Shown in pieces: positions 1,369 to 48,453 of a stretch of 64,000 nucleotides of DNA; position 1 is the stretch's first letter, and each line of letters begins with the position of its first letter. Both the position numbers and the translations under genes were made by a program. The notes under the pieces were generated by a model. It did not search any database and had not been told where the DNA came from. It was given only the letters and a program-made list of their open reading frames with translations. Source of the DNA: Isurus oxyrinchus (Eukaryota); contig JANJGN010000042.1 in NCBI GenBank assembly GCA_026770705.1, positions 2,170,001 through 2,234,000 on the forward strand, given 5' to 3'.

Positions 1369-1377
1369 CTGTAAGGC

Positions 1378-1408
<31 letters not shown>

Positions 1409-12450: not shown

Positions 12451-12520
12451 CAATTAGCGTAATTATTGCAAAAGATCAAAGCGTCTAATTGTCTCCCTGG
12501 AGGCTGGCTTGAGATATATA
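12451..12520 (+). promoter_or_regulatory. Putative proximal promoter of GPCR gene A (homeodomain sites, O/E-like site, TATA-like box)
   Basis: TAATTA 12460-12465, TAATTG 12486-12491, TCTCCCTGGAG 12492-12502, TATATA 12515-12520. Spacing is identical to the promoter of the minus-strand paralogue. Confidence 0.6.
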
Positions 12521-12571
12521 TGTGACTGTCTTTAGTTGTGGTGCAGAACACACTCGCAGCTGGTGACAGAA

Positions 12572-12641
12572 ATGCACGGATTGCCAAAAGGTCTTATTTT
12601 CATCATATATTATCCCGTCATTGCAGCGATCGGGATTCCAG
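12572..12641 (+). CDS. GPR139-like GPCR gene A, exon 1 (MHGLPKGLIFIIYYPVIAAIGIP+G)
   Basis: 70 nt = 23 codons + 1, ending at G|GTTAAG. The IYYP...GIP motif matches exon 1 of the minus-strand gene, and phase 1 fits the acceptor at 14031-14032. Confidence 0.88.
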
Positions 12642-14032
12642 GTTAAGTATTTTGGTTTGCTATGCTATTGAAATCATTGTTTAATCACTTCTCTTTGGTT
12701 TGCTTTCATTTTAGTGAATCATTGTTCGTATTTAGGAGCTTTGCTTCTACATGGTACGATATTCTTTCTCCCATTAAACAGGACAATCTATCAACATTAC
12801 GGCGACATCGTCCCAATTTATCACGCTAGACAATGTCACTTTTTTCCACTTCAAGGGAAATGCTTAATTTAATTCTCCATTTTAGCAACACAATTGTTTT
12901 CTTTTACTGACATGATTAGTCGTCATCACATGTCGAGTCGCTCAAGTTTGTCTGTGTCATTTCTTCCCTTGAACATAGTTTCTCCCCAATACAAGAATAA
13001 TAGTTCAGCAGTAACAATGCACTATCTTCCCTGAGCTAGTAACATTTAGTCAGTTTAATTGGACACTTTCATCAGTTTACCGCCACCGTTCGAGGTTTTA
13101 GATGTTCTTTTATTTTATTCTTGGTATTTTTAAAAAGCTTAATATATAACGCTGTTACCACTGAGGAAATGTTTTTCTATTGTTTCAACGGCATTGTCAC
13201 CGTGGGTGAATTATTACAGAGGAACTGTATCTGTATTATGCACTATCTCATTCTTTTCCCTTTAACCTTTCGTTGGAATATGAACAGTATTTATCTGATA
13301 AATCTGTGCAGAATATTAAATGACTGGCCCAGGGTTTCTTACCTTAGCGGAAACCTGGCACCCTGGGCAGCGAAGAATTCTCAGGGAGCTGAAGTTGGGC
13401 TTTAATCCAGGACGTTTTGACTCTAAAGCTTGACGTCTTTCAATTTAAAAGCAACTGAACCTTAAACTGTGTGTGGATTTCCACCCTGCTGTGAAGGATA
13501 GTTGTGTTCGCTGCACGTCATCATAACTCAGGAGTTCTAGTTACCCTTTATTTCCTTCCAAAGGAGTTTTTTTTTTCCATTCTTTCTGTTCTCATTTGCT
13601 GGATTATGCCCACAAGAGTAACACTTTGTATTTAATTCCATTCAACGCCATCTACTCAGTTTCTGTCAAATTCGTAGGTCGATTTAACATTGTGTACCTT
13701 TCTTTTTCCAATGTCCTAGCCTGTTCTTCTCTAAACAACAAGCAAGAGGATACTTGATTGTTTTTCATTTAACTGAGTAACAATGCAGCAATTTGAATAT
13801 TCACTATAGGACTGAGCCCGCATTCCTCCTGTAAATCAGCACAGTATTGACAATTTGCTGCATTTTGGAATGAGTCTTTCTTTCTCCACTGGAGTATATA
13901 AGTCATAGGACTGAAATGGGAACATTGCTCTCTTTTCATGACCAATGCTGTATTTGTGAGTTTCTCAACATTTTCTGTTCTATATTCATTTGTCCCCACC
14001 GCAAACTTACTGGTTATATTCCTCTGTCACAG

Positions 14033-14901
14033 CTAATTTGGCAGTAATTGTGATCCTGTCCCGAAGAAGATGCGGTCTCACTGGATGTATCACATACTAC
14101 CTGATGTCCATGGCCGTGACGGATCTCCTGATCATGATCCTTGCTGTGATGTTAAACCGGATTGTAGGTACATATTTCCCATTTAGTTTCCTCTCCATCA
14201 CTCCGGCCTTTGCTCTCAGTCTTGTGTTCATATATGGCGTCAGGGATTCTTCTGTCTGGGTGACAGTTGCTTTCACCTTTGATCGATTTGTAGCCATTTG
14301 TTGTCAGCAGCTGAAAACCAAATATTGCACCAAGAAATCAGCAGCTGTGGTCATAGGAACTGTCTGCGTTGTGCATTGTGCTAAAAGAATACCCTTGTAC
14401 TTTGCTTGTGAACCTTCTGTTATCACGGACAATACACCCTGGTACTGCAAACTAAAGCCAATATATTATTCGTCACCCGGATGGGTGGCATATGACAGCA
14501 TAAATGCCGTTTTAACCCCTTGTCTCCCATTCGTTCTTATTTTGCTGCTCAATGTTCTGACGGTCAGGCACATTGTTGTGGCCAGTCGAGCCCGCAGAAG
14601 ACTGCGAGCCCTCAGCAAGAGCGAGAAACAAAGCGACCCAGAGATGGAGAAGAGGAGAAAGTCCATCGTTTTACTCTTTGTCGTCTCGGGAAGTTTCATC
14701 CTGTTATATTTCCTCGCTCTTAAAACTTTCCTCTACGCACGAATTGCCAGCGTTAGTTATTTCGATGGCTCGAATTTCAATCAATCAAATATAATAATGG
14801 AGGAATGTGGACTTATGCTGCAGCTTTTAAGTTCCTGCATCAACCCCTTTATTTATGCAGGTACCCAGAGTAAATTCAGAGAGGAGTTAAAGAAGGTGTG
14901 A
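14033..14901 (+). CDS. GPR139-like GPCR gene A, exon 2 (312 aa spliced); C-tail truncated and C3.25 lost, possibly an incipient pseudogene
   Basis: tcacAG|CT AAT. Motifs ANL (TM1), MAVTD (TM2), TFDRFVAIC (TM3), LTPCLPF (TM5), NPFIY (TM7). A 1-nt deletion relative to copy B at ~14895 gives ELKKV* instead of ELKNGVKYP...FFK* (old stop at 14937-14939). Confidence 0.88.
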
Positions 14902-15899
14902 AATATCCATTGAGTCTGATTGTTAATTTTTTTAAATGATGAAAGCAGTGAAATCCAACATGAATTCTACATTATACCCCACCCATTGCTGTTGCTGTAC
15001 ATGTTACATATGGCTTCAACCCGCAGAAACAGAGTTACCTCCTGTCCGAGGTGTGAATTCAGAATTATATAACTAACTCTGCATTTTCCCAGTTTGTTTT
15101 TATTTTTTGTCCCCTTTCCAGAGCGGGCCTGGTACATTCCCAACTGTCCCTAAGGTCCCGGGGTGTCTCGACGTTCATGTAGGAGACAAAGTGTCCGACA
15201 AAAATGTATAACTTGGCAACAAAGTTTCACTATTAAATGTAGGAACCTTGCTACCTCCCCTTCCTATGTTTTGGAACTTGATGGTAGATGGCGCCCTGAA
15301 ATGGAAACGGACACTGTCCCCACCCATTGATCTATATTGAGCAGTCTCCGCTTCACACTTGAACTCTTTTTCCCATAAACATAGCAAGAGGGAACTGGAA
15401 TATTACAGACACAGATAAAGGAAACATTTTGTTCGCCTCTTCCATTTGGCAATGGAGGCGAAATCCGCAGAGTCATCATACAATATAAGTTACACTGGCA
15501 ACAATCTCCCCTTTTAAATGATTACAAATCGCAACTGGCCAGAACAAAAAGAAAACAAATTTAATGGAAACATTATCTTCACCATCCACAATGCATTATA
15601 AAAGTTTATTGCCAACCTGATACAGAAACAGTAATTAGAATGCAATTGTGGGTTACGCTTCACAATGACCCCCTATCCCAATCGTGGATTAAATATTACA
15701 CACTTGCTGTTATTTGGAATTTCCCGTGTCGTGACTTACAACCAACCGAAAGTCTCAGGACTCAGCATTGATCTCAGCAGAAAATCCAATCCAAGACATT
15801 CATGCTGTGTACATATTATCATTTGTTATGTCTTCCGATGTTAATTGAAACAAACCGATTGCTCTGCACTTTATAAGGGATTTGTCTAAACGATTAAGT

Positions 15900-16305
15900 A
15901 GCAGAAAAATGCACATGTTGTAGAAGCTTATGCTCTTGCACTTATCAGGACAATTTGCAAGAGTAACGCCGATTTCAACTGAACAAAGGACGGGAGAGCC
16001 TGTCTCTGGCTCATGGCCTCATGAAATGTCTTGACCAATCAGAGTCAACATACTTGATTTGAATGTAAACAACGGTTGACAGTTAACTTCCATTCATCAG
16101 GTCATTATCGCATTCTCTATTGCAACGCCACGAGTAATCCATTTTCACTCGCCCATCAATCATCACACTCTTCTCATGACGTTTTAAGTGTTGTTCCCTT
16201 TGATTTTTTTGTTACTCTTGCGAATTGTCCTGATGAGTCCAAGGTGAAAAGTTTCGAAAGCATGTGTCTTTGATCAGCACTCTCACATTCTGTTCTACCG
16301 AACAA
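15900..16305. mobile_element. Non-autonomous Penelope-like pseudo-LTR derivative with inverted arms; duplicate at ~62975-63375
   Basis: 15935-15967 is the reverse complement of 16211-16243 at 30/33 nt. The interior resembles the sequence following the Penelope-type C-terminus at 23240-23500 and the segment at 39270-39520. Confidence 0.65.
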
Positions 16306-16309
16306 CGAG

Positions 16310-17700
16310 TGAGTCCCATGTCAGTGGTCCGGAAACTATTGGAGAAAATTCTGAAGGAAAGAATCTACCTTAACTTGGAGAGAGAAGGTTTGATAAGAGA
16401 TATTCAGCATTGATTCTTTAGAGGTAGGTCATGCCTAACAAATTTGACTGAATTTTTGAGGAGGTGACCAGGTGTGTACATGATGGTAGTGCAGTTGATG
16501 TAGTTAATATGGATTTCAGAAAAGCCTTTGACAAGGTCCCATATGGCAGCCTTATAAATAAGGCAAATACACATGGGATACAGGGTAATTTGAAAAGGTG
16601 GATTATAAATTGGCTTAGTTGTAGGAGACAGAATGTAATGATAGAAGGCTGCTTTGGTGACTGAAAACCCGAGTCCTGTGGTGTACCACAGAGATCTGTG
16701 CTGGGTTGCCTATTATTCATTATTTATATAAATGACATAGATGACTATGTGGGGAGTAGGAATAGTAAGTTTGCGGATGACACAAAGATTGGCCGGTTGG
16801 TTTACAGTGAGGTTGAGAGGCTTGGGCTGGAGGAAGATATCGGCGTGGTGGTCAAATGGGCAGATAAGTGGCAGATGGAATTTACCACTGAAAAGCAAGA
16901 GGTTATACACTTTGGAAGGAGTAATTTGACAAGGAAGTATTCAATGAACGGCATGGCACTAGGAAGATCTGAGGAACAAAGGGACCTTGGTGCATGTGTC
17001 CATAAGTCTCTGAAGGCAGAGGGGCATGATAGTGGGGTGGTGAAAAAGGCATTTGGGACAATTGCCTTTCTCAATCGAGGCACGATTGCAAAAGTGGAGG
17101 GGTCATGTTGGAGTTGTATAGAACTTTGGTGAGACCACAGCTGGAGTGCTCTGTGCAGTTTTGATCGCCAAATGATAGGAAGGATGTGATTGTGCTAGAG
17201 GCGGTGTAGAGGAAGTACACGTGGATGCAGCCTGGGATGAACCATTTACCTTATAAAGAGTGGTTGGATAGAGTTGGGTTTTTTCGGCGAATCAGAGAAG
17301 ACTGAGGAGCGGCCAGTTCAAGGTGTACAAGCTTGTGAGAGGTATTGAAGGGGTGGATAGGGACAGCTGTTCCCCTTAGTCAAAGGCTCAGTCACGAGGG
17401 AACACAAGTTCAAGGTGAGGGGCAGGAGGTTTCGTGGGGATGTGAGGGAAAACCTTTTTTACCCAGGTATTGGGGACGGTCTGGAATACGCTGCCTGGGA
17501 CAGTGGTGGAGGCGAGTTGCCTCACATCCTTTATAAAGTGTCTAGATGAATACTTGGCACGTCCTAACATTCAAGGTTGTGGGCCAAGCGCTGGTCAATG
17601 GGATTAGTTAGGTAGGTCAGGTGTTTCTCACGTGTCAGTACAGACTCGATGAGCCGAAGGGCCTCTTCTGCACTGTGCGATCCTTTGATTCTGTGACTAC
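16310..17700 (+). mobile_element. 5'-truncated CR1-type LINE (RT and 3' tail)
   Basis: AVDVVNMDFRKAFDKVPY, LFIIYINDID, KFADDTKIG, WADKWQMEF, QRDLG. Tail ccgaagggcctcttctgcactgtgcgatcctttgattctgtga. Confidence 0.93.
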
Positions 17701-20479
17701 TTATTAAATTTTCCATGAAATGATTGTCATGATTATAAACAGCAGAATCAAATCTCTAAATTCGCTGACCTATCAACAATTGAAGCGAATGACTGAGTCT
17801 CTTCTCGCCTAAACATCGTTTTAATCATTTTATTATCTGAGTGAATGCACTTGAATTTGAAAGAATGGGACAACTGGCAATATGCTTCCTCGCCAATGGT
17901 GCAGGTGAACGATTTATTACCTGTGGAAACATTTCAATAAATCTCCAGCTGGGGTGGGCAAACGAATCCCATTCTATGGTCCAGGTATTGTCAAGCTTTG
18001 CTTCCGTAGAGTACGTCCTGCCCAGGTTGGGTAATCCATTGAAATCTATTCCACAGACAGAAGTGTTGCAGCGTCTCTCCCCGTTGCAAATGCTGCAACT
18101 TCAATTTAATTCTATGGAAGTGATTGCAGATCTTTGCATCGTCATTGCATTAGAACACTCTCAGTTGGGTGCCTGTTTTATTGTGCTTCCAGCAACACTG
18201 GCCTTTGAAATTAAATTCCACTGTCTGTATTGGCAAACATTGCTCCTTTTTTTTGTTTTACTTTCTGTTCTCCATTCGCAGGATCCCCTCTCGCTGTCGC
18301 CTGAAAGAATTGCTTTTGGATGGTTTTTAGTTTTGCATTTACCCAACAGCCTTGGAGTTCCTCTCCTGAACATGTTGACTCAGAGGAAAAGCAGGATACA
18401 TCCAGCTGCTCTAATATTTCCTATACTTCAGTTAGATCATGGGTAATCTATATATAACTTGCATCTACCCACTTTAGTTTTATTCTCTTTCAATGGTTTT
18501 CCTGAAAGTAGTCATTCTATCTCATTTTCACATGTTCGATTGACTCCGATTCTCTTTGAATCTTTAGGAGAAAATGGTCCAGGGGCATGGTAGCATAATA
18601 ATTATTTTAATGGACTAAAACACGAAATCCATTTTATTGATTCGCGACATAATTTAAGATCCCACAGCAGTGGCTAAAGTAGTTGAATTAAGTTCTCTAA
18701 ATGCAACTGAAATTAAGAAGGCAAAGAAAAAGAAAAATGACACATCACGAATAATGACCATGAAAGTATATTCTTATCAAGAAGGAAAAAATTGCGTTCT
18801 GTTTCATTAATGCATCTTAGTGCAAGGATTGTGCTTTAGTTCCCCTGCTTGGAGAACATGTGGTTCCAGACCCATGGAGAAGTATTTAAGTGATAACCAT
18901 TGTCTGAAATGGTCGAGCAAGCCGCTATGAAACAAAAAAAGAAAAGTAACAGTGTGAGGAACACTCGTGATTTTCCCAGATGCTGGAAGCTACAAAGGGA
19001 AAGCCAGCCCAATCGATCCTGCAAAGCCCTCCTCATTCACATCTTGGGACATGAGAGCTGACTCTCAAACTAGCCAATGGAAGGTCTGACATTGTCGGAC
19101 TCGCCGAATCAAACCATTGAGAAAATGTTCCAAACTCTACCATCACCAGCTCTATTCATGTGCTGTCCCAAAGGCATAATAACAAAATGTATCATAAAAT
19201 GTGGCACGCTATTTGGCCACAACAGGATGGAACATTTGTCCTCAAACTCGGTAAGGGCTAAATCACAATTAAATTTAGACAATGTTCAGATATCTCTTTG
19301 AGTTTTGCGAAGAGCAATTAGATCTCCTGGCCTTGAAGAAAAAAGCTTTGTGATCTTGAATACAACTATATCATTGCAGTAAAAATAATACATTGTACAT
19401 TCCATGGCTAGTAATTATAAAAACGTCAATCTTTCAAATTTGCGCCTATAGTTTTGGAGCCAATGTAGTTTTTAACCGCCAGGCATCAGAAAGGATACGA
19501 AGCAAAACACACAAGTTCAGTTATTGACCTGTTGCAGCCATCTTCTTAATTAATATGATCCATATAGAGAAGTCGTTTTCAAAATGGACATCATTTCAGC
19601 AGTTCAATGTTGCAATTGTGATCCATCTTTGAAAGTAATAATACCAGGCATCCAGTGTAGTTATATTACACATAGACTCCCATGTGGAAGTGTTTTCATA
19701 ATTATATGCCAATTTGAATTTTGTCTAGTTAGCAAATGTCATGTGAATTTTGATTGCTTCCTATACTAGGCTGTGCTATTAAAATCAGGGATTTGAATTG
19801 TTTATTTATTCTTGATGCTTTCACATGTCATGGATGTCACTGAACAGGCCATCATTTGTTGCCCATCCCTAATGACCTTTGTCCTGAGTGGCTTACTAGG
19901 CCATTTCAGAGGACAGTTAAGAGTCAACCACATTGTTGTGGGACTGGAGTCACAAGTAGGCCAGGCTAGTTAAGTGAACCAGATGAGTTTTTACAACAAA
20001 CTGTGATAGTTCCATGGTCACTATTGCTGGGGCTAGTTTCACAATTTCTGATTCATTCAACGAGTTTAAACTCTATCTGCTGCCGTGGTTTGATTTGATC
20101 CTCCCTCTCTAAGGTGTTAGCCTTCACACCTGGATTATTAGCTTTATGACAGTGCAACGGCGCCACCATCATCCCAATGATATGGAGAGAAAAAACATGC
20201 AGAGAAACACAGAGAGGTTTGGAAATCACACATACAATTGTGCTGCTTTAGGTTACACTGGGGATACGTAACTCCTTTCAGTTTAAGATTCTACTTCAAC
20301 CAATATATTGGTTTCATTTGTCCAATCCAGATATTTGAAGAAAGTTTATTTGAGATGTAAACTATTGTATCTCAATTAACCAATTATAAGAAACAATAAT
20401 TCATCGAAATGGATGAAATTATTTGAAAAGCAAGTATACAAAAATAAATCTGCAGTCTCTTTGTCCGCAGTGCTTTAGG

Positions 20480-21020
20480 CAAACTCACTAAATGGTCACA
20501 GCTTTCCCTTTCGGGCCTGAAAAGACCTGGGTATATCTCAAATTATTCGGGAAGACTCAGGTAGCCCAAAATTGGAGCAACAAAAAAAAAATGTTGGCAC
20601 TATGCAACGGCGACACGAGTGGTATTGTCCACGAATTGGTTGAAGATAATAGAACAAGCCAAGTTTCTACTCGCCAGGCAATTGAGTAACGCAATGTATG
20701 AATCCCAGCGCCAGCAAAGTGAGTCAGAGATCTCAGCGATTGGTCGGTCAAGTCAAACAAAATGTCCCTCCACCCGGTACGTAATATACCGAACAAAGAT
20801 CCAATTGAAGCAGCCCGCGCTTGTAAAACTCGAATCAAAACTCCAACAGTTAGAAATAATTCCACGAATGGTCACAGTCATTGAGAAGCCTTGAGTGCGC
20901 TAATTGCGGCACACTAGCAAGAACTTCAAGGTAATCAGTCAAGTTGTTCACGTGGTTCATTAAAACTTGTCAGGGGCAACATGCATTCATAAACAAGGAC
21001 TCGATCTCTGCAAACTAAAT
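20480..21020 (+). mobile_element. Penelope-like element relic (RT C-terminus / GIY-YIG region)
   Basis: FGPEKTWVYLKL, LSNAMYESQRQ..SQRLVGQVKQNVP, FKVISQ and ATCIHKQGLDLCK. Homologous to the minus-strand piece at 23438-23731. Family assignment is from recall. Confidence 0.6.
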
Positions 21021-21049
21021 AAATTTTCCTAGGTTTTTTTCAAATTTTG

Positions 21050-21430
21050 TGTCCAGAATTTAGGCTTCACTGGCTAGGCTAACATTTATTGCCAATCACC
21101 AATTGTCCTTCGGAAGGTGATGGTGAGCCGCGTTCTTGAACCACTGCAGTCCATGTGGTGTACATACAGCACAGTGCATTTACCGAAGAAGTTCAAAGAT
21201 TTAACCTCCACCACAGTGAAGGAGCGATGATCTGATCGAAGTCTGGATGGTGTGTGGCGTGGAGGAGAACTTGAATTCGATGGTGTCCTTATTTATTTCT
21301 TGCCCTTGATCTTCTAGGCAGTAGAGATCGTAGGTTGGTAAGATGATGTCTAAGAAGCCTTGGTGAGTTCCTGAAATGCATCCTGTACGTTGTTCACAAC
21401 TGCTGCCTCTTTGCATCGGTGGTGCAGGGA
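21050..21430 (-). mobile_element. 3' tail of the L2/CR1-group LINE seen at 29050-30290; a similar piece lies at ~7770-8050
   Basis: Reverse-complement similarity to 29900-30285 (catttattgcc...gaaggtg.tggtgagc.gc.ttcttgaac..ctgcagtcc). Confidence 0.75.
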
Positions 21431-21469
21431 CTGTTTGTTTGTCGATGCGGTGGTAATAGCTAAGTGATG

Positions 21470-22612
21470 ATAAGAAATTGCAACAGCAGTAAGCCATTAG
21501 GCCGCTCAAGCCTGCCCCGCCATTCAATAACATCATGGCTGATCTGCACCAGGTCTCAAATCCTCTTTACTGACAGCTCATCATGAAGCTCAACTCACGA
21601 TATTTCAAAAATCTATCCATCTCTTCTTTAAATACCTTCAGAGATCAAGCCTCCACAACTCTCTGGGGTAGAGAATTCCAGACATTCAATACTCTCAGAG
21701 AGAAGATATTCCTTCGCAACTCAGTTTTGTATGTGTGGCCCCTTATTATGTAACTATGTCCCCTAGCTCGAGATTCCCCCACTAAAGCGAACATTTTCTC
21801 AACATCTACCTGTCAAGCAACCCCTCCCCTCAGGATTCTGTTCGTCTCAATAAGATCATTCCTCATTCTTCGAAGGGCTAATAAATAAAGTCCTAATGTG
21901 TTTAGTCGTTCCTGATAAGTCAACTCCATCATCCCAGGAATCAGCCTAACGAATCCCCTTTGAACTGCATCTGATGCCAATATATCAATTCTTAAATACA
22001 GGGGCCGAAAGCGTTCACAGCACTCCAGGTGGGGCCCCACCGAATCCTGCATATTTGTAACAAGACCTCTCTATTTTTTAAACTGTAACCCCCTAGCAAC
22101 ACAGACCAAAATGCCATTTGCCTCCTTAATTACTTGTTACATTTGCATGTTAACGTTTTGTGCTTCGTACACAGGAACAATCAGAGCCTGCACGTTTTTG
22201 AAGTCTCTCTCCATTTTAATAGTCTGTCTTTTGATTCTTCCTACAAAAGTGAATGACCTCACACTTTCCAGCATTAAACTCCATCTGCCAAGTGTTTTTG
22301 CTCACTCACTCAACCTATCTACAACACCTTTTACATTCCTTATGTCCTTTCACAACATGTCTTCTCACCTATTGCTGTAGCATCAGCAAATTTGGATACA
22401 TCACACTCTGTCCGCTCCTCCAAGTCATTGCAATAGCTAATAAATAGTTGAGGTGCTAGGACTGATACTGTGGCACTCCATTTGTTGCGTCTTTCCAACG
22501 CTTCTGAAAAGGACCCATTAATCCAGACTCTTTGTCTCCTCTCTGTTATCCAATCCTCAATCCGTGCTAATACATCTCTCTCAATACCACGGGCTCTTAA
22601 CTTGTGCAATAA
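21470..22612 (-). mobile_element. CR1-type LINE relic (RT and 3' tail)
   Basis: HKLRARGIERDVLARIEDWITERRQRVWING, VSKFADAT, PHLECCERFRPLYLRIDI, LTYQERLNTLGLY. Confidence 0.9.
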
Positions 22613-22631
22613 GTTCTGTCAAGTTCCCTCA

Positions 22632-22735: not shown

Positions 22736-23239
22736 AACTTGTAACAGATGTTCCTCATCCCTGTCATTATTTCGAAAGCTATAAATTCCTTGCAAAATGT
22801 TCTTCCCAGAACTGGACTCAGATGCTCCAGCTGAGCCAAAACGTTCTTGTGTTTTTATCCTAGGTTGCTACTTATAGAATCAAACATCCTGTATGCCGAT
22901 TTATAAACATATGGGACATGTATTTTGCTCCTGCAATCCCATTACCATCATATCCTTTAATCGAAATTTCCTATCCTTATTCTTCATTCGAAGATGATCC
23001 ACTTGACAGATAGCTACGTTAAAGTTAATCTACCAACTTGTATGCCCATTTTATAAATCTGTCTATGGCTTTTGGAAGTTCAGCACCCTCTCACATTGGT
23101 TTGCAATATTTCCAAGTTTTGTCGCATCTGTAAGCTTTGAAATTATGTCACGTACACCCAAGTCAAAGCCATTATATATATCCAGAAAAAGGGTGCTGAC
23201 ACCAACTCCTGGCGAAATCTTCCTCCAATTAGAAACATT

Positions 23240-23790
23240 TTTTGACTCGTAAGGTCACTTTTTAAGAATACTGATGTAAGAGGAAAACAGCAATTTATAC
23301 TGCATGTGAAGAGAGTGCTGATTGCTTGGCAAATGGACTCTGGCAGAGGAATTGTCATGGAGAATGCACCAATTATGGCGACTGAAAGTTAACTTCTAAG
23401 CTTTGTTTGAAATTTTAGCTAGGCAGCTTGGCCTTGATTAGTCAATGCATTGCCTTGAGGAATGAGTCAGCGAATGGCTGTCACTTATTGTGTTCAGCTG
23501 AACCAGGCACAATGTGTGTGCATGTCTTTTCTGCTTGCAAAGAACAGGGCCCTGTGTATTAAAATATGCAGCGCCCAAATACATGCAAATGCAACATTCT
23601 GCAAGCCCAAATGATAATCTAAATTGGTTGTCAGCGTTATTCTTAGTGCAATTATTTTTTTTTAAACAAATGTTCTCGAGTTCTGGAATCGCATCCAATG
23701 TTGAACACTGTAATTTGAGCTTTACCAGCATGGCCCGGCCGGTTGGATATGTTCTGTACTTTGCCCGTTTCGAGGTTCAGTGAGCAGCAA
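23240..23790 (-). mobile_element. Penelope-like element C-terminus plus pseudo-LTR relic
   Basis: NNCTKNNADNQFRL...LGAAYFNTQGPVLCKQK, followed by non-coding sequence similar to 16010-16100 and 39270-39400. Confidence 0.6.
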
Positions 23791-26700
23791 CATTTGTATG
23801 ATTTATGCCATTTAGAAACATTATATTTCCCTTTCTTAACGCCAAAGTGCACAACTTCACATTTGTGCACTTTGTGCTCCGATAGGAAGTCCATCTGTTG
23901 CCCTCTCCCTTAACCTTTCGACATCAACTTTCAGCCTCCTTGTGTTCACCTCACAGCTTGCACCCGCACCTAGCATTGAATCGTCAGCAACTCAATTATT
24001 TTCCAGGTCTTTTCCGAAGTGATTAATGCAAATTGTAGCTGAGGCCATCATTGAAAGTTGCGGCACTCCACTGGTGACAGCCTGCCAGCCTGAAAGTGCC
24101 CAGTAAACCGTATTATTTGCTTCCTCGACATTGACCAATCTTCTACTCATGCTAATGTATTCGCTTCAAACCCATGAGTTATCATCTTACGAACTAACCT
24201 TTGTGTGGAATCTTGAGGGATTTAAGTTCGAAGTCCAAGTCTATGACATCAACTGGTATCTAAAAGGGGGCAAAAACGATGTCACTATCATAACCCATGA
24301 AGATCCTCCCCAATCATAGCATAAGTCTATTAATGAGTTGTTCAGAATTCTTAACAATCGATTCCCACAGTTCCTGGTGACCGAAGAAAGGTTCACTGTA
24401 CTTCTGGTCGACATGTGGCATTTTTTTTACCATCTCTCTCTGCTGAAGTGCAAATAATGTCTGTCTCTCCAATTCCAAACATCTTTCTACAGCTTATCTT
24501 CTTCAGGTTTTGCAGTCGACCATCTTCAACAGCTTTGTTTCCTCCACAAATTCGGCCATTGTTGTTGTGTCATCGAGCTTCGGGTAATTATTAACGGCAT
24601 TAAAAAAAAAGGTTCAAATAAGGAGACTCTAGGATATCCACTTTAACAGCCCCTCAGGCCAATTCATCTCTGTATCCATGCCTTATAGGCACTATGCATC
24701 AACATGCTAGTAACCCATTGAAAAATATATCCACTGATTCCAGCAACTGATTCCTAGATGAACTACGTACAAGGACTAAAAAAGCCAAGGGTATCACATC
24801 CATTAAATGGACCCTACCTAGTGAAGTTTAATGATACAGACTCCCTTTCATGAACATATATCGACTATATATTGAGATAACTTTACATCCATCTGTTCCA
24901 TGGCTTTATTTGCAGCAACGGTTGCACAGCATTACACACTCTGAACATCAAACTTATTACTTTGTACTTTCCTGGATCAAATTTGCATCTGCTTTTCTGG
25001 AGCACCAACCACTCTTTAATAGTCAGGGCTTTCTCTTTGATTCGTGTGCGGCACCCTGCAGGTTGCTTACGTATTTGCATAAGGAAGCTCGATTAAATTT
25101 AAGTGGCCACTTAGGTCGACGAATCAGAATTGAATTTTGGACAGCTGTTCATCAACCATGTTGATCGCAATGTGACCTGAGTCACAACGATTCTCTGACG
25201 CGCTCCATAAAAACAGTCATTTTTTAAATCCATGGAGGTGTTTTAAATATCTGCACGAAATTCGCCTATTCCCACTTCTCTACTAACAGTAAAAGAATAT
25301 ATATCTGGGTCGCAATTACTGATGATTGAAAATTTGTCTGTCCCAATATCCCACTCCAATAACATGAAAAAAATACAATATCAATTTATTGTGCTCTCTT
25401 CGGAGAGTGTTTCTATATGCACGAGGAAATGCTGGACACATTTCGTCGGCTGGATAACATCTCGGGATTGAGAACAAAAAAACAGTTAACTGTTTCAGGT
25501 CGATGAGCTATCAACGAAACTGAAAAGTGTTAGGGGAGTTTTATGGAAATGCTGATTGGACTTTCAGTCAACATGCGTGGACTATTCAGTGGACATATTC
25601 GTGAAAACTTTATCTTGGAACATTTAATCAGTTGAAATTTCCCAACCATCTGCAAATGTTGCGGCATTTATCTCAATGGGAATTCCTTGATTTTTGAAGC
25701 ACTACCATTCTGGATGACCCCGAGTCTTAATCTCATTTACGATCATAATTTCCAACCAGTAGATTTCCTCGGCTTAATCTTCCTACCAAATTACACCACT
25801 TCAATCTTGGTCAGAATCAAATTACTTTGCCATTTATTCTCATGAGTTTTTGATATTCTTGTATTTGGTCACATTTGGCGCTCATATCCAAATCATTCAA
25901 GTGTTGTGAACAGCTGGCTCTCAAGTAGTGAGCCTTCCAATTCCCCACTGGCCAGATGCTGACAAATTTTGATATTTCACTCTATACTCCATCACCCCCA
26001 CCACCCCCACCGCCACAATAAAAAAACACATACTTAGGTCGCCGGCGCCCCTCACCCCACACCTCACACTTTGAAATGACATGCTTCAGTTACTGCAGTA
26101 GCAGGAGTCCTTTGGATCACGTAAGAGTGTCACAACACTGATGGAAGCCCTTGAAGCATTAGTCTGTTTCTCGCTACACAAAGGTAGCGAGGGCTGCTGA
26201 TTATTCCCAGCATTGCTGTTTTTTATTTCAGTTCCGAGCACATTAGCCCCCCCTCTCTCTCCTCTCCTGAACATACTTTTTGCAGATGAGTTCAGGGGAC
26301 ATTTGAATTGACGAATTTCACTGGAACATAACTTGTGCAGTGGAAATAAATCTTTATTTGAAACGAGGAGACTTCCCACTCCGAGATACTGTGACTGTTC
26401 AGCTCTAAAAACACTGGAATAAAATCACAGAAAGATTTTGAAAAGCTGAAATCACTGACTTTCGAACCTCTAAAACCCACCCTCCCATCTGCAGGTTGGT
26501 CCGAAATGTTTTGAACAAGGTTTCCCTGGGATAGTGGAGACACTGCAGCATGTCCGCCCTTGGACTGTAACCTGCACAAGTGGCCTTATCCTCCAAAGCC
26601 CCTTTGGGTAATGACATGGAACTCGAGCCTGGTGGGTGGGAATTTCACACACCAGGCCCAAGGACAACAAGAGAGTTGGAATAGCATGGAAACCAGCAGG

Positions 26701-26862
26701 ACAAACAGGACTGAGGTAAATTACTTCCCAAATGCACCGTTTCTGTTAGTCATTGAATCCTGGCCGTGAAAGATGAAAACTGGCCTCACCCTGTGCTCAT
26801 CACCGAGGTGAAGAGATTGGGAATAAAACAGCGTCAACTCGTATTGATAATGGATATTCTTG

Positions 26863-27764
26863 TCACTGTTTAATAAATTGAAAAATTACAGAAAAGGGAT
26901 ATTTCACCACATTCTTCAGCTCATTTCTGAATTGAGTCTGGGTCACTGCATAAATGGCCGTGTTAGTGCAACAACTCAGGAGCTGAAATATAAATCCCAG
27001 TTCCTGCACAAACCTAGGAAGGTATACAGGAATAGCATCTAACACATATAGCCTATTACAAACAGAATTTATCATAAAAACTACCCACAACAGAATAAAA
27101 TTCCCCGATATAGCAAACAGTAAAATGATGGATTTCCTGCGTTTCTCCATCTGTGGGTCCCTGGGTCTCTCCCCACTGCAGTGAGCCTGGAGTCTCCTGC
27201 GGGCTCTGCTCGACACTAAAATATATCTGACAGTTAAAGCGTTCAACATCAAAATCAAAACAAATGGCGCAAATGGTGTTAAAATATAATGAAGACATTC
27301 GATTGCTGCCCACATTGATGAGAATTCAGCATCCGTCACTAATGTGCAAAACCAAGGAGCATTGGAAAGCGAATATTGACCTACATACATAAAGTACCAG
27401 AATGTATCCTTCACACAGAATAGCAGACTGACTGTTCCGAGAACCACAGCCGCCGTATGCTGGGTGCAATATTTTGTTTTCAACTTCTGGGAACAAATAG
27501 CCAGAAATCTATCAAAGGTGAAAGAGACTGTGAACCAGACAGAACAATCTGTGGCTGCATAAAGCAGGACTGCATGGATATTACACACTTTAAACCTCCA
27601 CATGAACTGAAACTGAGCCCAGTAAAGAATAGCAATTTGCCTGAATATGAGATCAAGGATAACGACCAGTAGATCCGCGGTTGCCATGGACACCAGGTAA
27701 AGGGAAACACATTTTGAGAGACCGCACTTTCCCCGAGACAGGGTCACAATAGTCAGTATGTTCA
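26863..27764 (-). CDS. GPR139-like GPCR gene C, exon 2 (apparently intact, 332 aa spliced)
   Basis: tttctcttccttacAG|TG AAC acceptor at 27766-27765, open to TGA at 26865-26863. Motifs VNIL, MATADL, VC (3.25), TFDRFLAIC, PWFC, LTPFAPF, NTAIY and an intact helix 8/C-tail FRNELKNVVKYPF. Confidence 0.93.
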
Positions 27765-29049
27765 CTGTAAGGAAGAGAAAGGCAGGATAGTTATTGTTTA
27801 ACTTAGAGCAACTGTTACAGACTGATGGAGTGACATTTGAACAGAGTTATCCAAGGTCAGAATCTAATTACTTTACCAGTGTTTGAGCTTTACGCTGGAG
27901 GGAGTGTTTCGAGTTAAACACCATCCTGTTGTAGCAGGAAAACAAATCCTGCAGCAGGTCCCATCGCCACTTCCCTAAATTATTCATGGAATTCGGAGTG
28001 AAAATCACTCACCCCATTACTAGTCCTGCTCAATATCCCATGAAAATGCTGCAAACTGCATCAGAACGATATGTTGGGCTATGATTTGTACTGAAGGAAA
28101 ATGGTTCATTTATTTTTGAGAAGATATTTGAGTGGAACATTAAGGTTGTGTAAAGAAGTAAATACAGATTTGAATTCAGAAATTGTATTTCAAATCAGGA
28201 TGTCCAAATGTGCCTTCCTGATAATTATTGCCTTTGCCAAAAGGCACAATGAACGCTTAGACTGTATCCCAGTAAGAAATAGACTCTCGAAAAGAAATAA
28301 AGAACAGGGAGGGAAATGGATCGCTAGACTGAAGAAAATAAATTAGAGATTGAATCAGAGCTGGATTCTGGCCAACACGAAGGAACAGCAGAGAGTGGCA
28401 GCACCCAAAATTCAGGCTGGCAAGCAGGAGAGAATTTACCAATGGATCTAATGTCTGTGTTTTGGGACAGGAATTAAATGGGCCAATGGTTGGGAAATGA
28501 AGTTGTTACATAAGAATGCAAGAACTAGGAGCAAGAGCAAGCCATATTTCCCTTTGGTCAACTCTAATGTTCACTAAGCCCATGGCCGTTCTTCGACTTC
28601 TACTATCCAAAACTATCAACATTTATCTTAATGGCCTTAGAGCACAAAAATCTACCGACCAACATCCCTCTAGAGTTGATAATTCGGACGTTTCTCCACT
28701 TTCTGAGTGAAGAAGATTCTCTTCATCTCAATTCCAAATGGCCAACATTTTATCTCAGGGATCGAGTTCTCGACTCCCCACCTAAGGGAAACATTCTCTC
28801 AGCATCCATGCTATGAGGACACTAAATTATTTTCTATGACTCGATGAGATAATCACACATCCTCTAAATTTAAGAAGATGCATGTCAAATTTGATTGATT
28901 GATTGATTACTTAAGTATATTTTTCCTTAGGCAAGAAGGCCAAAACTGTACACATTAATCGATATGTTTTCTCACCAATCACAAAGATAATTCTATCAGA
29001 ACTTCCTTACTCGAATACAGGGAAGAATGCCATTTATTATCCTATTCAC

Positions 29050-30290
29050 TTGCAATATTGCTGTATCCTAACCTCATTACAGCTTTGTTTCAAACATGGA
29101 AAAAAGAGCTGAACTCCCGGGGGGAGGTGAGAGCGGCTGCCCTTGACATCAAGGCAACATTTGGCAGAGTGTGGCATCAAGGGCCCCTAGCAAACCTGGA
29201 GTCAATGGGAATCAGGGGGGAAATCTCTGCTGCTTCGAACTATACCTAGCAGAAAGGATGATGGTTGTGTTTGTTGGGGGTCGATCATCTCAGCGCTAGG
29301 ACTTCACTGCAGCATTCCTTCAGGGTACTGTCCTCGGCCCAACCATCTTCAGCTGCTTCATCAATGACCTTCCTTCCATCACATAGTCAGAAGTGTGATG
29401 TTCACTACTGATTTCACAATGTTCAGCGCCATTAACGACTCCTCAGGTACTGAAGTAGCCCATGCTCAAATGCAGCAAGAGCTGGACAATTACCAGGCTT
29501 GCACTGACATGTGGCAAGTATCTTGCGCACCACTCAAGTGTCAGGCAATGACCATCTCCAACAAGGGAGAAACCAACCATCGCTCTTTGTCATTCAATGG
29601 CATTAACATCACTGAATCCCCCACTATCAAATCCTAGGGTTCACCATTGACCAGAAACGGAACTGAACGAGCCATATAAATACTATGGCTACAAGAGCAG
29701 ATTAGAGGCAAGGAATAGTGCGACGTGTAACTCACCTCCTCACCGCCAAAGCCTGTCCACCATCTGCAAGGCACAAGTCAGGAGTGTAGTGGAATGCTCC
29801 TCGCTTGCTTGGATGGGCGCAGCTGCCAGAACGCTCAAGAAGCTTGACACCATTCAGGGCAATGCACCTCGCTGGATTGGTAGCACATCCAAAACTATTT
29901 ACACACTCCACCACTGTTGCATAGTAGCACCAGTGGGTGCCATCTACAAGATGCACTGCAGGAACTCATCAAGGCTCTTTCAGCTGCACGTTCAAACCCC
30001 GACCACTACCATCTAGAAGGAGAAGGGGAGCAGCCAGATGTGAACACCACCAAACGGAAGTTCCCCTTCAAGTCACTCACCATTTTGACCTGGAAATATA
30101 TCGCCGTTCCTTCACTGTCGCTGGGCCAAAATCCTGGAATTCCCTTCAGAACAGCACTCTGGGTGCGCCTACACCCCGAAGACTGTAGCAGTTCAAGAAG
30201 GCAGCTCAGCACGACCTTCACAAAGGCAACTAGTGATGGGTAATAAATACTGGCCCAGCCAACGAAGCCCAGTTCCCATGAATGGATAAT
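29050..30290 (+). mobile_element. 5'-truncated L2/CR1-group LINE in the intron of gene C, antisense to the gene
   Basis: PNLITALFQTWKKELNSRGEVRAAALDIKATFGRVWH, QGTVLGPTIFSCFINDL, WQVSCAPLKCQAM. Tail ggtaataaatactggcccagccaacgaagcccagttcccatgaatg. Confidence 0.9.
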
Positions 30291-33034
30291 AATAACACAT
30301 ATTGCATGTTCGCTTTCTCTAGATTGTGTACCCGAGCACACAAATTATGAAAATTTACAATTTTTACCAGTTTCTCGCCTGTTTAAACGCTGGCTGAGGA
30401 TAGAATGAAACTCGTCTGTGTTATTATTTCAGGGAAACTGAAGATTCTGGTGCAATATTAACACAGGGCTTTGATGCGTGTGTAAATTAATACGTAAGAT
30501 AATTCATAAAATTAATGGTCCTGGCCTCCTATTTGGTGGCGATACTCAGATAATCAGCGGTGATTGTAAATGTAATTAAAGCCGTATCTTTTTCCACCGT
30601 TGCAGCTTGTTTTTTTTGCCTACGTAGCGGGGTGGGGGAGATGAGGTGTGTATGAGGTGCGTAGATGGCGGGTGGTCAGCAGTTGGGATGGGGATGGGTG
30701 AGTAGTTAACGTGCTTTGCAGTCGGTTGAGGGTTGAATGGACGGGCGATGGCTAATGAGAGCTGTGCAAGTTGATCGAGGGGAAGGCAATCGAGTCAGAT
30801 TAGATATTCTGGGGTCAGTAGTTGGGGGTGTTGTGGGTTGTTGTGTGTGGGATGAATGTGGGAGTTCTGTAGGTGGGGGTTGGGCGTGCATGGGCTTTGC
30901 TTGAAAGTTATTCACTGACACATGCTAGAAATTAATAGCGGGAAAATACTACGCCAAGCATCTGTCACACAACAGGCATAACAGTCCAAAACTAAAGTCA
31001 GCATTGGAGTCATTGTTAGAGGGGCCTGGGCAGTATAAATCTGCCCATCTGAAGTTTAAAGTTCATGGGAAATTACCATGCATGCTCCTGGATCAAGACT
31101 TCAGATGGGTCCTGATATGCAGAGCGGCAGACATTTCAATATTCACCACTGTTGGCATCAGGAGCTCCGGTTAATGATATAGTCAGTATTAATTTCACGG
31201 CAATGGACTCCAGACACTAGCTGCAGATAGAGGGAAATTACACAAGAGCGGAATGGAGATCAGGTCAACGAAGGCTGGCTCAGGATGAATAACAATAAAG
31301 AACACATTTTAAGAATTATCTTAAAGGATGATAAGTTTGTGGCGAGGACAAAGGATTTAGGAGGAAATTCAGAACATGAAACTCTTAATATTTCATTGTG
31401 GTCACCCATGACAAAGGCTGCAGACATGTCGACAAAAGGGAAGAGAGGCAGCTCGGCATTAGCAGAGTCACATAAGATATAATTTGTGCCTTTGCTAAGG
31501 ACGGTGTAAGAGTTGTAATAAGGGAGAAAAATGGTTAGAAAGATTTAAGCATGGTGTCCCTGGAAGGTGGGGCAGAAACGTGGGGGGTAGCAACAGGGAC
31601 AAGGAATTTGTAGAGGAAAGAGAGGTTAGAGATGGAGTGTTTGCTTACAAGGACTGAGGCAACAGGGGTTGCTTATTTACAAGGGCAGGGGTAATGACTA
31701 CAGAATGGAGCAGCAAAGAACAGTAGCTAAGCAGATGGAACTATTAACTATATCACCAACTGAGGAACATGATGAGGAAGTTCGGTGTTCAGCAGTTTGG
31801 TGGGAGTACGGTGAACCAGTCCCCACCAGCAGCCGCCCCTCCGCCCACATCCTACACCATGCCTCCCATCAACCCAATCAAACGCCTGGAAATCTCGCAT
31901 CTGAAACATAATGGAACGCTCACTACTCATCAGTATGGTTATCAGAGCAACACCCAATAAGCAGAATCACCTTCAATAATGGAATAGATTTTCCATCAGT
32001 GTCCGTCCATCATTAAACTTGCTATTTCTCCACCTCCACCTCTGTGGATGCAGGAAGAATGTCTACAGAATCAACTACAACAACGCACCGGGGCTACTTC
32101 GACAGCACGTCCCAGGACAGCAAAATGCAGAAGGTGTGCAATGCCGTGAGATTCACCTTCTCTAACGCACCATCCTGACTTGGAACGGTAACCGCTCCCT
32201 TCATCAGCGTTCCGGAATTCCCTAACAGCAGGTAGGAGCACAGTCAGCAGAGGGAATACTTCAGCTCAGCAAGAAGACTCAGCACCAACTTCTCAGCTCA
32301 CTTCCGGATGGGTAATAAATGGAAGTTTGTCACAAGAATCCATTTCCCAAGGACACATTTTGAAAATAAAAAAACTTTGGGAGGGGGATAATGATTTGCA
32401 GCTCTAAATAACGTCATGCAGAGACAAGGGAAGGAAATTAAGTCTGTGGACAGAAATGGGAACGGAGCCAATTGTTGGTGAGGGGAGCAAGTATTGTTGA
32501 ACAATTATTACATTTTAAATTCTCTCCTAAATATCTAAATTTTGTTATTGTTAGGCAAAGCGGGAGATGGTGAAATGGAATTTGCCTGGAGCTGAATTAT
32601 TATGTGAGATCTTCCCTCGTTCCTGTCTGCCCTAATTTCCACAGATCAGTGCAAATTACTATCTGCATCACACTGCAAAACCAATACCTGCGCAACATAT
32701 TCTGCTCAGATATTGGGATTCAGTTTAAACAGCAGACTGCAGCTGTTCAACAGCTATAATTCATCACTAATATTTATTGCGTGAAATATTACACCAGCCA
32801 AATTCTGAAGAAAAAAATCACTTGAAGCAAGTTTTGAGATGTACAAACGGTCCAATGAACTGTGAACAGTGAATCAGCAACTGCTGAAATGCTAGTTCAC
32901 AGAAGCACAGGGCATTACATGTCACAGGACACAAGAATTACAGAGAATAAAATTAATTAACTTACGTTAAGGGCAAGGACAACAAACATGGTGAAAGATG
33001 TTTTATAAAATAAGTTTCTAAAATAATCACTCAC

Positions 33035-33131
33035 CAGGAATGCCAACAGCAGCGAGGAGCGGATAGTAAATCCTTTGCAAATCATAAATCACCCAGAAAA
33101 TCCGAACTTCAGTTGGAATTTCAAAGAACAT
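33035..33131 (-). CDS. GPR139-like GPCR gene C, exon 1 (MFFEIPTEVRIFWVIYDLQRIYYPLLAAVGIP+G)
   Basis: 97 nt = 32 codons + 1, canonical G|GTGAGT donor, IYYP..AAVGIP motif. Phase 1 joins to give ..GIPVNILTIV. The start is the only in-frame ATG and is less certain than the donor. Confidence 0.85.
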
Positions 33132-33222
33132 GATCTCATTTGCTATGAGATCCAATGATCGCTGTTTATACTGGCGACCACACTCTGTCAAACACTGATA
33201 TACACATTGAAAACATTGCCTA

Positions 33223-33284
33223 GATATAGGCTGAGGAGAGTCCTGGTGATTCAATTAAACAATACACTGGCTGGCATTAATTAC
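33223..33284 (-). promoter_or_regulatory. Putative proximal promoter of gene C
   Basis: On the minus strand: TAATTA (33283-33278), TAATTG (33257-33252), TATATC (33228-33223). Same 20-nt and 23-nt gaps as gene A. Confidence 0.6.
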
Positions 33285-33394
33285 AGTCACTTAACAAACA
33301 AGATGCCTTAACCCTTTCATCCCATCACTTTGTATGGAAAAAATATACTAAAAACTACATGGCATTCCTGTCAAGATAATTTATTCAAAGCAAG

Positions 33395-48449: not shown

Positions 48450-48453
48450 CTGT

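Follow-up and report, generated by a model that had tools for sequence, protein, structure and literature searches.

A candidate inherited TATA-type promoter with homeodomain-type sites in an expanded GPR139-like receptor family of Isurus oxyrinchus

Promoters of chemosensory receptor genes are the closest described systems for the locus considered here. Mammalian OR promoters combine TAAT-core and O/E-like sites near large clustered GPCR genes, as is the case at this locus (PMC5318403, PMC3247230), and O/E-like sites are present in both OR and V1R promoters (PMC3247230). OR promoters are mostly TATA-less and the OR coding exon is single (PMC5318403). In the Lhx2/Ebf composite of the mouse Greek Island enhancers, TAATTG is followed directly by an imperfect EBF palindrome, again as found here, and the composite is already impaired by a 2-nt insertion (PMC5608512). 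Cartilaginous fishes have been described as GPCR-poor (PMC8455134) and possess approximately 10–50 known olfactory receptors, yet large olfactory organs (PMC10116579). For the receptors themselves, the described groups for comparison, via a match to GPR139, are GPR139/GPR142 and, from fish and coelacanth, GPR210A/B (PMC6504862); a separate amphibian and sturgeon gene is a nearer bony-vertebrate relative. No paper on an elasmobranch GPR139-clade family was found in the open-licence PMC and bioRxiv full texts.

The window analysed is a 64,000-nt stretch of Isurus oxyrinchus DNA (contig JANJGN010000042.1, positions 2,170,001 to 2,234,000), in which a preliminary description had recognised paralogous GPR139-like GPCR genes of an expanded family. 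This was borne out; the expansion is a great one, and the genes have two coding exons. In Pfam at E<=0.01, all 24 alignment members match 7tm_1, with one match to Srx and none to any other family. The best match of the family profile to solved structures is GPR139 (E 2.9e-14), a distant one (56 bits), and 117 of the top 120 database matches are named "probable G-protein coupled receptor 139". The databases hold 2116 clusters at E<=1e-40, and amphibians have one relative per species in 20 species. The family is thus a class A, GPR139-clade group (7tm_1, nearest solved structure GPR139) with many paralogues in elasmobranchs. An OR, TAAR, V1R or V2R identity was rejected, with no such entry among 44 solved-structure matches and a Pfam assignment to 7tm_1. 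The A-type and C-type subfamilies share 47% protein identity, A-type genes are present in sharks and in batoids, and the split between the subfamilies is shown to be older than that between sharks and rays. The family is tandem and pseudogene-rich, and has the following features in the window.

12445..12450, plus strand: gene A, TTGTTT word upstream, lying at -15 here but at -18 in both C and D, missed in the preliminary description
12459..12468, plus strand: gene A, motif 1, homeodomain-type G-TAATTA then TTG
12486..12491, plus strand: gene A, motif 2, TAATTG
12492..12503, plus strand: gene A, O/E-like site, six of the eight specified bases of TCCCNNGGGA, gap 0 or gap 2
12515..12522, plus strand: gene A, TATA box TATATATG, fitting TATAWAWR
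12542..12547, plus strand: gene A, initiator-like TGCAGA, read from the sequence by consensus
12572..12641, plus strand: gene A, first coding exon (23 codons and one further nt), followed by a GT donor
14033..14901, plus strand: gene A, exon 2, 7tm_1
33269..33301, minus strand: gene C, motif 1 TAATTA (33283-33278) with TTGTTT (33301-33296) upstream of it
33252..33257, minus strand: gene C, motif 2, TAATTG
33240..33249, minus strand: gene C, weak O/E-like site, 5/8 at gap 2
33221..33228, minus strand: gene C, TATA-like TATATCTA, differing from TATAWAWR at a single base
33194..33199, minus strand: gene C, initiator-like ATCAGT, read from the sequence
33035..33131, minus strand: gene C, first coding exon (32 codons and one further nt)
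26863..27764, minus strand: gene C, exon 2, 7tm_1, intact
47679..47790, plus strand: gene D, putative promoter, with TTGTTT at 47679, TAATTA at 47697 and GTATTG at 47723
47731-47740, plus strand: gene D, O/E-like site, 6/8
47753, plus strand: gene D, TATA TATAAATA, perfect, at +56 and not +55
47784-47785, plus strand: gene D, CG, YR bases
47850..47946, plus strand: gene D, exon 1, C-type, ATT for ATG and TT for the GT donor
59530..59635, plus strand: gene B, putative promoter, a recent copy of that of A with two differences in the element
59657..62009, plus strand: gene B, exon 1 (59657-59726) and exon 2 (from 61118)

Gene C is the sole fully intact family member in the window; its closest single-domain match, P0003 (79%), begins at the equivalent Met. 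The exon junction of gene A at residue 23 agrees with 90 of 121 database relatives, and its exon 2 is one base short near the end when compared with copy B, so that the frame stops about 14 residues early. Gene B is frameshifted near 61896, has an in-frame stop farther on, and is therefore probably a pseudogene. A third lineage, gene D, was overlooked in the preliminary description and is represented by a decayed orphan first exon (47850-47946); no exon 2 was found up to the duplication edge at 48396, and by its sequence D is a pseudogene.

It had been claimed that genes A and C share the trio TAATTA-n20-TAATTG-n23-TATAT with unchanged gaps and diverged spacers. A window-wide pattern search confirmed the trio, returning exactly three matches in 64 kb: 12460-12521 (plus, A), 33283-33224 (minus, C) and 59545-59606 (plus, B). 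In both A and C the gaps are n20 and n23, which places TAATTG at +26 and TATAT at +55, and the spacers are identical at only 14 of 43 columns. Gene B differs from A within the element at +25 and +49 only and keeps the cores, as described; because it lies inside a 15.6-kb duplication that is 97% identical to the A copy, it provides no independent evidence for the trio. Base-for-base spacing, exact in A and C, does not extend to every lineage, since D has its TATA moved by one base and GTATTG, without a TAAT core, as its second site. The window therefore holds three lineages, two with the exact trio and one with a variant. Homeodomain-type TAATTR sites near the predicted start number two in A, B and C and one in D, and GTAATTA with TG after it is the same in A, C and D. 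All three lineages share a common layout of TTGTTT, TAATTA, TAATTG, O/E-like site and TATA, with the TATA 57–97 nt upstream of the start codon.

A TATA box has the consensus TATAWAWR, with transcription starting at an initiator or YR approximately 30 nt downstream. Such a pairing is found in all three lineages: the box is perfect in A, with CA at +30, and in D, with CG at +32, and fits at 7/8 in C, with TCAGT at +32. Start sites had been predicted near 12545 and 33200, and initiator-like bases indeed sit at 12545 and 33196, which we take as candidate start sites 30 nt from the first T of the TATA in A and 32 nt from the TATA in C. The sequences upstream of A, C and D are promoter-like in these respects. 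They could alternatively form the 3' end of an intron behind a non-coding first exon, a type of exon that many OR genes have, with the TAAT words acting as branch points. Gene C does have the pyrimidine-rich CTCTCCTCAG about 25 nt past TTTAAT, and several database gene models resemble A from approximately 9–13 codons before the Met, diverge farther upstream and look spliced in near the GCAG of A (12543-12546). However, the upstream portions of those models appear mutually unrelated, the acceptor-like AG of C is absent at that position in D and A, gene A is without a pyrimidine tract and has several nearer AGs, and the perfect TATA boxes of A and D are left unexplained. We consider this alternative most improbable.

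None of 100 shuffles matched the trio pattern, a null that overstates the case because the pattern was taken from the data itself. Pairs of unrelated 300-nt regions (2893 random pairs, and 3000 pairs including the A or C upstream region) provide fairer nulls. Three exact matches, no shorter than 6, 6 and 5 nt and lying on a single diagonal inside 70 nt, occurred in 46 of 2893 and 60 of 3000 pairs (about 2%), and the best ungapped 62-nt identity was 33 or higher for 220 of 2893 and for 277 of 3000 (8–9%). TAATTR words are common (124 in the window), and when 400 nt of A and C were aligned locally, with gaps and on lenient settings, the match did not rise above shuffles (150/500). The A–C match thus exceeds chance for unrelated DNA, though only moderately. 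These frequencies leave some room for a chance alignment in the wrong register, with the promoters of A and of C/D non-homologous over these columns, and MAFFT did place A against C/D in a different register. A profile built from C and D alone ranked the A site as the top non-training match among approximately 128,000 positions in four of six window choices; in the other two it came sixth to seventh, and a register 52 nt downstream, also the MAFFT one, scored more. However, recovery of the described register in four of six windows, and the canonical TATA-to-initiator distance that this register gives in all three lineages, argue that the alignment is unlikely to be spurious, and we regard a wrong register as quite improbable. 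A profile from A and C found D as its best new match (26.2, against 12.6 for the next), which is partly expected because C and D are close relatives.

As A and C are paralogous, common descent is the proper null, and the three words could be chance-surviving columns of neutral descent with no spacing grammar. Synonymous divergence is unsaturated: A–C identity at fourfold-degenerate sites is 33/53 (62%, CI 48–75%), above the 52% of the element. In simulations of neutral descent at 50–62% per-site identity, 62 ungapped nt contain runs of 7, 6 and 5 with a probability of 0.02–0.22. The C–D alignment, moreover, extends approximately 545 nt upstream and through 420 nt of intron, motif 2 and the TATA spacing are altered in D, and between C and D the homeodomain columns show no significant excess of conservation over the spacers (10/12 vs 25/43, p=0.10). 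Against this, the motif-anchored block from -30 to +62 is significant (A–C 0/300 shuffles, A–D 2/300), whereas most flanking blocks are not (A–C 158, 32 and 130 of 300; A–D 38, 238 and 273 of 300) and two are marginal (A–C -400..-250, 10/300; A–D +62..+112, 11/300), and the introns are likewise unaligned or marginal (A–C 5/100, A–D 81/100). The A–C spacers (14/43) are less alike than the fourfold sites (p=0.004, post hoc), and the 32 A–C matches show clustering across the 62 columns (945 of 200,000 permutations, for a pattern defined post hoc). The longest exact run over 529 aligned C–D columns, 15 nt (33289-33275 in C), falls on motif 1, with a simulated chance of 0.002–0.007 for a pre-specified hexamer, a value that rises somewhat once A=C columns are taken into account; of the 12 gap-free C–D blocks, the longest, at 118 nt, spans the element. 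What survives also belongs to known motif classes at canonical distances. We therefore consider a purely neutral remnant unlikely.

The best reading, in our view and on statistics that are modest, is a TATA-type promoter with homeodomain-type sites that is inherited, probably selected, and predates the shark–ray split. More specifically, it seems fairly probable that the element is an inherited core and proximal promoter, an island of about 90 nt under purifying selection since the ancestor of the A-type and C-type genes. Several observations weigh against a selected promoter: D lacks a second TAAT core, although D is a pseudogene; the TATA of C is imperfect, with an extra TATA word, TATAAACA, at 33170 that is not retained in D; and only C is intact in the window. 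Mechanistically, TBP would bind the TATA box, with transcription starting approximately 30–32 nt downstream (12545, 33196), and TAAT-core homeodomain proteins would bind near -85 and -60, the first site presumably being the more constrained one. An EBF-type factor beside the second site may assist, and spacing fixed relative to the basal machinery would account for the few indels.

The O/E-like site was described as imperfect in A and weaker in C, which agrees with our scores: against TCCCNNGGGA, genes A, B and D each match at 6/8 and gene C at 5/8, none reaching 7/8, and against the consensus of the preliminary description the matches in A, B, C and D are 9, 9, 7 and 10 of 12. In the window, 173 of approximately 64,000 positions reach 6/8 and 1225 (1.9%) reach 5/8. 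The best fit lies 2 nt after the hexamer, or 0 nt in A and B; at gap 1 the scores drop to 4, 4, 4 and 3 of 8. The Greek Island spacing of 1 nt between hexamer and TCYCNNRGGA, taken from one probe, is therefore found in none of the four genes, which have 2 nt (or 0 in A and B) instead (PMC5608512). That probe, mouse Sfaktiria, likewise scores just 6/8 against TCCCNNGGGA, fits best at gap 1 and is also readable as gap 2 at 5/8 (PMC5608512). Unlike OR promoters, the element has an imperfect O/E site and a TATA box (present in A, B and D) whose distance from the sites is fixed, and unlike OR genes these GPR139-clade genes have two coding exons, the first being separated from the second by an intron at TM1. 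Promoter homology among paralogues that is strongest within subfamilies, as between C and D, is also seen in V1R genes; the promoters of different V1R subfamilies are said to have no evident homology, whereas the present island persists between subfamilies at 47% protein identity (as summarised in PMC3247230). The loose resemblance to smell-receptor gene promoters is a hint, though no proof, of an overlooked set of chemical sensors in sharks, and a family-wide cis code, which would rest on three lineages of a family with probably hundreds, is not supported as written.

A stronger form of the best reading, in the direction of the preliminary proposal, would be a family-wide Lhx2/EBF code with sparse, OR- or V1R-like expression of unrecognised chemoreceptors in olfactory neurons. 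Genes A, C and D share one register for the O/E-like site behind motif 2, its left half (TCCC) being kept by A and its right half (GGGA) by D, and among 204 homeodomain hexamers in the window only those of A and B have a 6/8 O/E match at gap 0 or 2, with none at gap 1 or 3. The size, tandem arrangement and pseudogene content of the family, set beside one relative per amphibian species, would also suit such a repertoire. However, no site reaches 7/8, and the 5/8 of C is met at 1.9% of positions. EBF acts in B cells and many neurons as well. The O/E-like sites of OR and V1R promoters (PMC3247230), the few known olfactory receptors of large-nosed cartilaginous fishes (PMC10116579) and a TCR alpha/delta-like V segment among these genes, recalling mammalian TRAV among OR genes (PMC2275272), favour the proposal; the spacing one base off the Sfaktiria probe (PMC5608512) and the mostly TATA-less state of OR promoters (PMC5318403) weigh against it. 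Moreover, catshark olfactory neurons are almost all TRPC2+/Go+ microvillous cells, with 0 of 8 OR genes detected in situ (PMC10116579), and a catshark brain-plus-olfactory library has no GPCR among its 50 most specific genes, a weak point as no V2R is among them either (PMC11979771). On balance, we find the stronger proposal rather doubtful.

The same promoter may instead serve another programme, either non-olfactory sensory or neuronal, for example through a POU4/Brn3-type factor on TAATTAATG, or immune. Candidate cells are taste, solitary chemosensory, lateral-line and ganglion cells, and the immune version corresponds to MRGPR- or FPR-like expansions. The best-kept C–D block runs to TAATTAATG, which we take to resemble POU4 sites, and away from the O/E site; many homeodomain proteins bind TAAT cores; and the TCR-like V segment inside the cluster has a 23-nt-spacer RSS. 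However, A has TAATTATTG at that place, and the V segment, whose leader carries a stop, may be an orphon; this alternative, too, strikes us as somewhat unlikely. Tentatively, and as a possibility that falls short of probable, we suggest an overlooked GPR139-clade-derived chemoreceptor repertoire whose homeodomain/EBF/TATA promoter was gained independently before the shark–ray split, with sparse expression and TCR V neighbours. This view entails a large birth-and-death family expressed in olfactory or other chemosensory neurons.

With a homeodomain-driven promoter in common, many paralogues would fall under one cell-type programme, most likely neuronal or sensory. The GPCR-poor picture of cartilaginous fishes contrasts with more than 2000 database clusters of this GPR139-clade family. 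If the family is olfactory, the shark nose would no longer be seen as a small V2R system, and OR-like regulation would have arisen anew on a different receptor scaffold. If it is not, what remains is a large receptor family, so far undescribed, whose promoter is conserved.

The preliminary description reported a promoter element upstream of exon 1 in which TAATTA (motif 1) is separated by 20 nt from TAATTG (motif 2), and TATAT lies a further 23 nt downstream. The sequences that it quoted are present in the window at the positions assigned to them, and the pattern occurs three times there, at genes A (12460, + strand), C (33283, - strand), and B (59545, + strand), B being a copy of A. Genes A and C belong to the GPR139 clade of receptors; a phase-1 intron falls where TM1 begins in both, and the proteins encoded by exon 2 are 47% identical (134/284 codons).

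Receptor genes, remnants, and neighboring features (window positions)
12572-12641 and 14033-14901, + strand: exons of gene A, a two-exon class A GPCR (Pfam 7tm_1)
33131-33035 and 27764-26863, - strand: exons of gene C, a two-exon class A GPCR (Pfam 7tm_1)
514-1372, 3116-3268, 48395-48439, and 50201-50356: further exon-2 remnants
40394-40883, + strand: TCR alpha/delta-like V segment (Pfam V-set) with an open V exon, between gene C and exon D
40845-40883, + strand: RSS with a 23-nt spacer, a perfect nonamer, and the heptamer CACCACG
10761-11192, 16665-17132, and 29651-30016: LINE-like reverse-transcriptase fragments (first and third judged by eye; 16665-17129 has a weak similarity to RVT_1 that falls short of the curated threshold)

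Gene C is the sole fully intact family member within the window. Gene B is frameshifted, and gene A lacks one base relative to B late in exon 2 (14893-14940, + strand), so that the A protein stops approximately 14 residues early; this difference is either real or an assembly error. Gene B lies inside a 15.6-kb duplication with 97% identity (1293-16925 and 48396-64000), and we dropped it as support for the element, as it differs from A at 28 positions in 2000 nt and both of its two differences within the element would be expected to fall outside the cores approximately half the time. Nested in this recent segmental duplication is an older tandem duplication of 1.7 kb (78%; 1208-2943, 3119-4885, 48427-50029, and 50204-51965), which holds exon-2 remnants from this GPCR family.

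Searching with the first exon of C revealed a fourth such exon, D (47841-47945). It is an orphan exon without an ATG or a splice donor, and no exon 2 for it was found before the duplication edge. A first-exon profile derived from 84 of 120 proteins recovered four first exons in the window, where the promoter profile gave no further matches above 13.5 bits. The region upstream of D is homologous to that of C (alignment score of 220 against 61 for shuffles; 0/500), and the TAATTA of D lies inside a 15-nt stretch shared exactly with C; no exact run in the 529 aligned columns is longer. Motif 2 of D reads GTATTG, and its TATA box, a perfect TATAAATA, is displaced one base further. Thus, the layout is present in three lineages, and the claim of unchanged motifs and spacing holds for the A and C lineages and fails in D. 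As D is decayed, its changes may postdate the loss of function.

A window-shuffle null for the exact pattern is circular and was replaced by other tests. Among unrelated 300-nt regions, a trio of exact runs (at least 6, 6, and 5 nt, on one diagonal within 70 nt) occurred in 46 of 2893 random pairs and in 60 of 3000 pairs including the A or C upstream region, and an identity of 33 of 62 in 220/2893 and 277/3000. When A and C were aligned leniently with gaps, the result was not significant (150/500 shuffles), and alignment of the introns and most flanks of A with those of C and D was absent or marginal. The block from -30 to +62, counted from TAATTA, does align (0/300 shuffles for A and C, 2/300 for A and D). 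A profile built from C and D only placed the A site first among non-training positions in four of six windows; in the two windows starting at -40 this site ranked 6th-7th and a register 52 nt downstream scored higher. The first spacer of gene A contains AGATCAAAG (12473-12481, + strand), a match to the TCF/LEF site, and similar words, GATGAAAG and GATAAAAG, lie approximately 38 nt upstream of motif 1 in C and D; the competing register arises from these TCF/LEF-like words. A MAFFT four-way alignment, which placed A and B in a different register from C and D, was not used. Judged from these sequence comparisons, the block is homologous.

Selection, in addition to descent, has more probably than not acted on the block, although this is unproven. 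In its favor, the matches in the block are clustered (post hoc; 945/200,000 permutations), the 15-nt run over motif 1 has a chance probability of 0.002-0.007 before columns identical in A and C are allowed for, and the A-C spacers are identical at only 14/43 positions against 33/53 fourfold sites. Against selection, fourfold sites remain 62% identical between A and C, neutral simulation yields the trio at 0.02-0.22, and the homeodomain columns are not significantly better retained than the spacers between C and D (p=0.10). D retains a larger share of the columns identical in A and C (22/27 against 14/28, p=0.014), but this was dropped as a sign of selection because neutral evolution on the same tree predicts it.

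Within the element, TTGTTT lies at -15 (A) or -18 (C and D) from TAATTA, TAATTG lies at +26 with an O/E-like (Ebf-type) site after it, and TATA lies at +55 or +56. The TATA-box consensus TATAWAWR fits exactly in A and D and with one mismatch in C, and initiator-like bases follow the first T of TATA by 30 nt in A (12545) and by 32 nt in C (33196) and D (47785). This TATA/initiator core probably drives the start of transcription, and homeodomain proteins would bind at about -85 and -60, possibly with an EBF-type factor as partner. An Rfam search gave no matches. The 27 nt preceding the gene A ATG (12545-12571, + strand) look conserved in A-type relatives that read through them in frame (P0144, P0154, P0323, P0366, P0399, and P0409), which suggests a conserved short 5' UTR. 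In gene C, an out-of-frame upstream ATG of weak context lies 8 nt before the start codon and opens a 16-codon overlapping frame (33139-33089, - strand); the main ATG has an A at -3.

The preliminary description likened the element to an olfactory promoter. With 2 nt between it and motif 2, the O/E-like site agrees with TCCCNNGGGA at 6/8 positions in A, 5/8 in C, and 6/8 in D, with the left half kept in A and the right half in D. Scored against the 12-base O/E consensus put forward earlier, A, C, and D reach 9, 7, and 10, as do 141, 3069, and 22 window positions, respectively. The mouse Sfaktiria probe, a Greek Island Lhx2/Ebf composite, reads best when the gap is 1 nt (PMC5608512), whereas the shark sites match only 3-4/8 at that gap. 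According to the respective sources, OR promoters combine homeodomain and O/E sites mostly without a TATA box (PMC5318403), the juxtaposed composite marks enhancers and not most OR promoters (PMC5608512), and TAAR enhancers conserve TAATNN sites but not O/E sites (PMC8213819). When tested for membership, the shark genes and element fell outside both the OR genes and the Greek Island composite, and the element resembles an olfactory-type promoter loosely.

The receptor family itself is very large. At E<=0.001, exon 2 of gene C matched 2151 clusters out of 3489 candidates; the best 120 of the 2151 comprised 54 from Heptranchias, 47 from Heterodontus, 17 from Pristiophorus, and 2 from Scyliorhinus (hand count from the listing), and 117 were named probable GPCR 139. 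The gene A subfamily was placed via a quick-search tree, in which a skate protein lies beside gene A (support 87). With E<=1e-40 as the cut-off, that protein matched 2116 clusters out of 6417 candidates, the best 120 of the 2116 being from sharks and batoids, with one unnamed. The 23-residue first exon of A was found in 90 of 121 proteins drawn from this search and the search giving amphibian relatives, was longer in 11, and its pattern was unmatched in 20. As A-type relatives occur in both sharks and batoids, the A/C split predates the shark-ray split. In Heterodontus, and likewise in Heptranchias, the contigs carrying the two types have the same length, which points to conservation of a mixed cluster. 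Paralogue promoters sought via over-long N-termini of database gene models gave nothing usable: the extensions are N-terminus repeats or unrelated exons, and similarity to A ends approximately 9-13 codons before Met. Many C-related paralogues (P0009-P0120; Heptranchias, Heterodontus, and Pristiophorus) have N-termini of 1-5 tandem 14-residue repeats, each opening with Met and containing an N-x-T glycosylation site, and repeat number differs among paralogues.

A 24-member profile found GPR139 as its best solved structure (E 2.9e-14) and matched no olfactory family in Pfam. The nearest bony-vertebrate relatives found were a sturgeon protein and clusters from 20 amphibian species, one per species (21/25 matches in a word-limited search). 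Birth-and-death evolution is typical of chemoreceptor and immune receptor families; the present family shows it, and the pattern does not separate the two. A vertebrate GPCR survey, in whose text sharks do not appear, places GPR210 groups of fish and coelacanth close to GPR139 (PMC6504862). GPR139 names had no matches in 12 of 24 supplement files of PMC8455134 or in 8 supplement files of PMC13188829, and among open-licence PMC and bioRxiv texts we found no publication on the elasmobranch expansion or its promoters. According to PMC10116579, catshark olfactory neurons are almost all microvillous, in situ hybridization detected no OR, and known receptors number approximately 10-50 per species; a catshark brain-plus-olfactory top-50 list contains no GPCR (PMC11979771).

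The TCR-like V segment between C and D recalls the mammalian TRAV segments that are interspersed among OR genes (PMC2275272). Further V segments in the window were sought via an ORF list and an RSS scan, the latter giving one match, and the leader exon of the segment holds a stop codon.

Two tissue assignments, an Lhx2/EBF olfactory code and use of the same promoter in other sensory, neuronal, or immune cells, are refinements of the best explanation rather than alternatives to it. This explanation, which we favor with some reservation, is that the element forms a genuine promoter island, inherited and probably under selection, within a very large and apparently undescribed elasmobranch receptor family. 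The further proposals that the element is family-wide and that the receptors are chemosensory are less likely than not.
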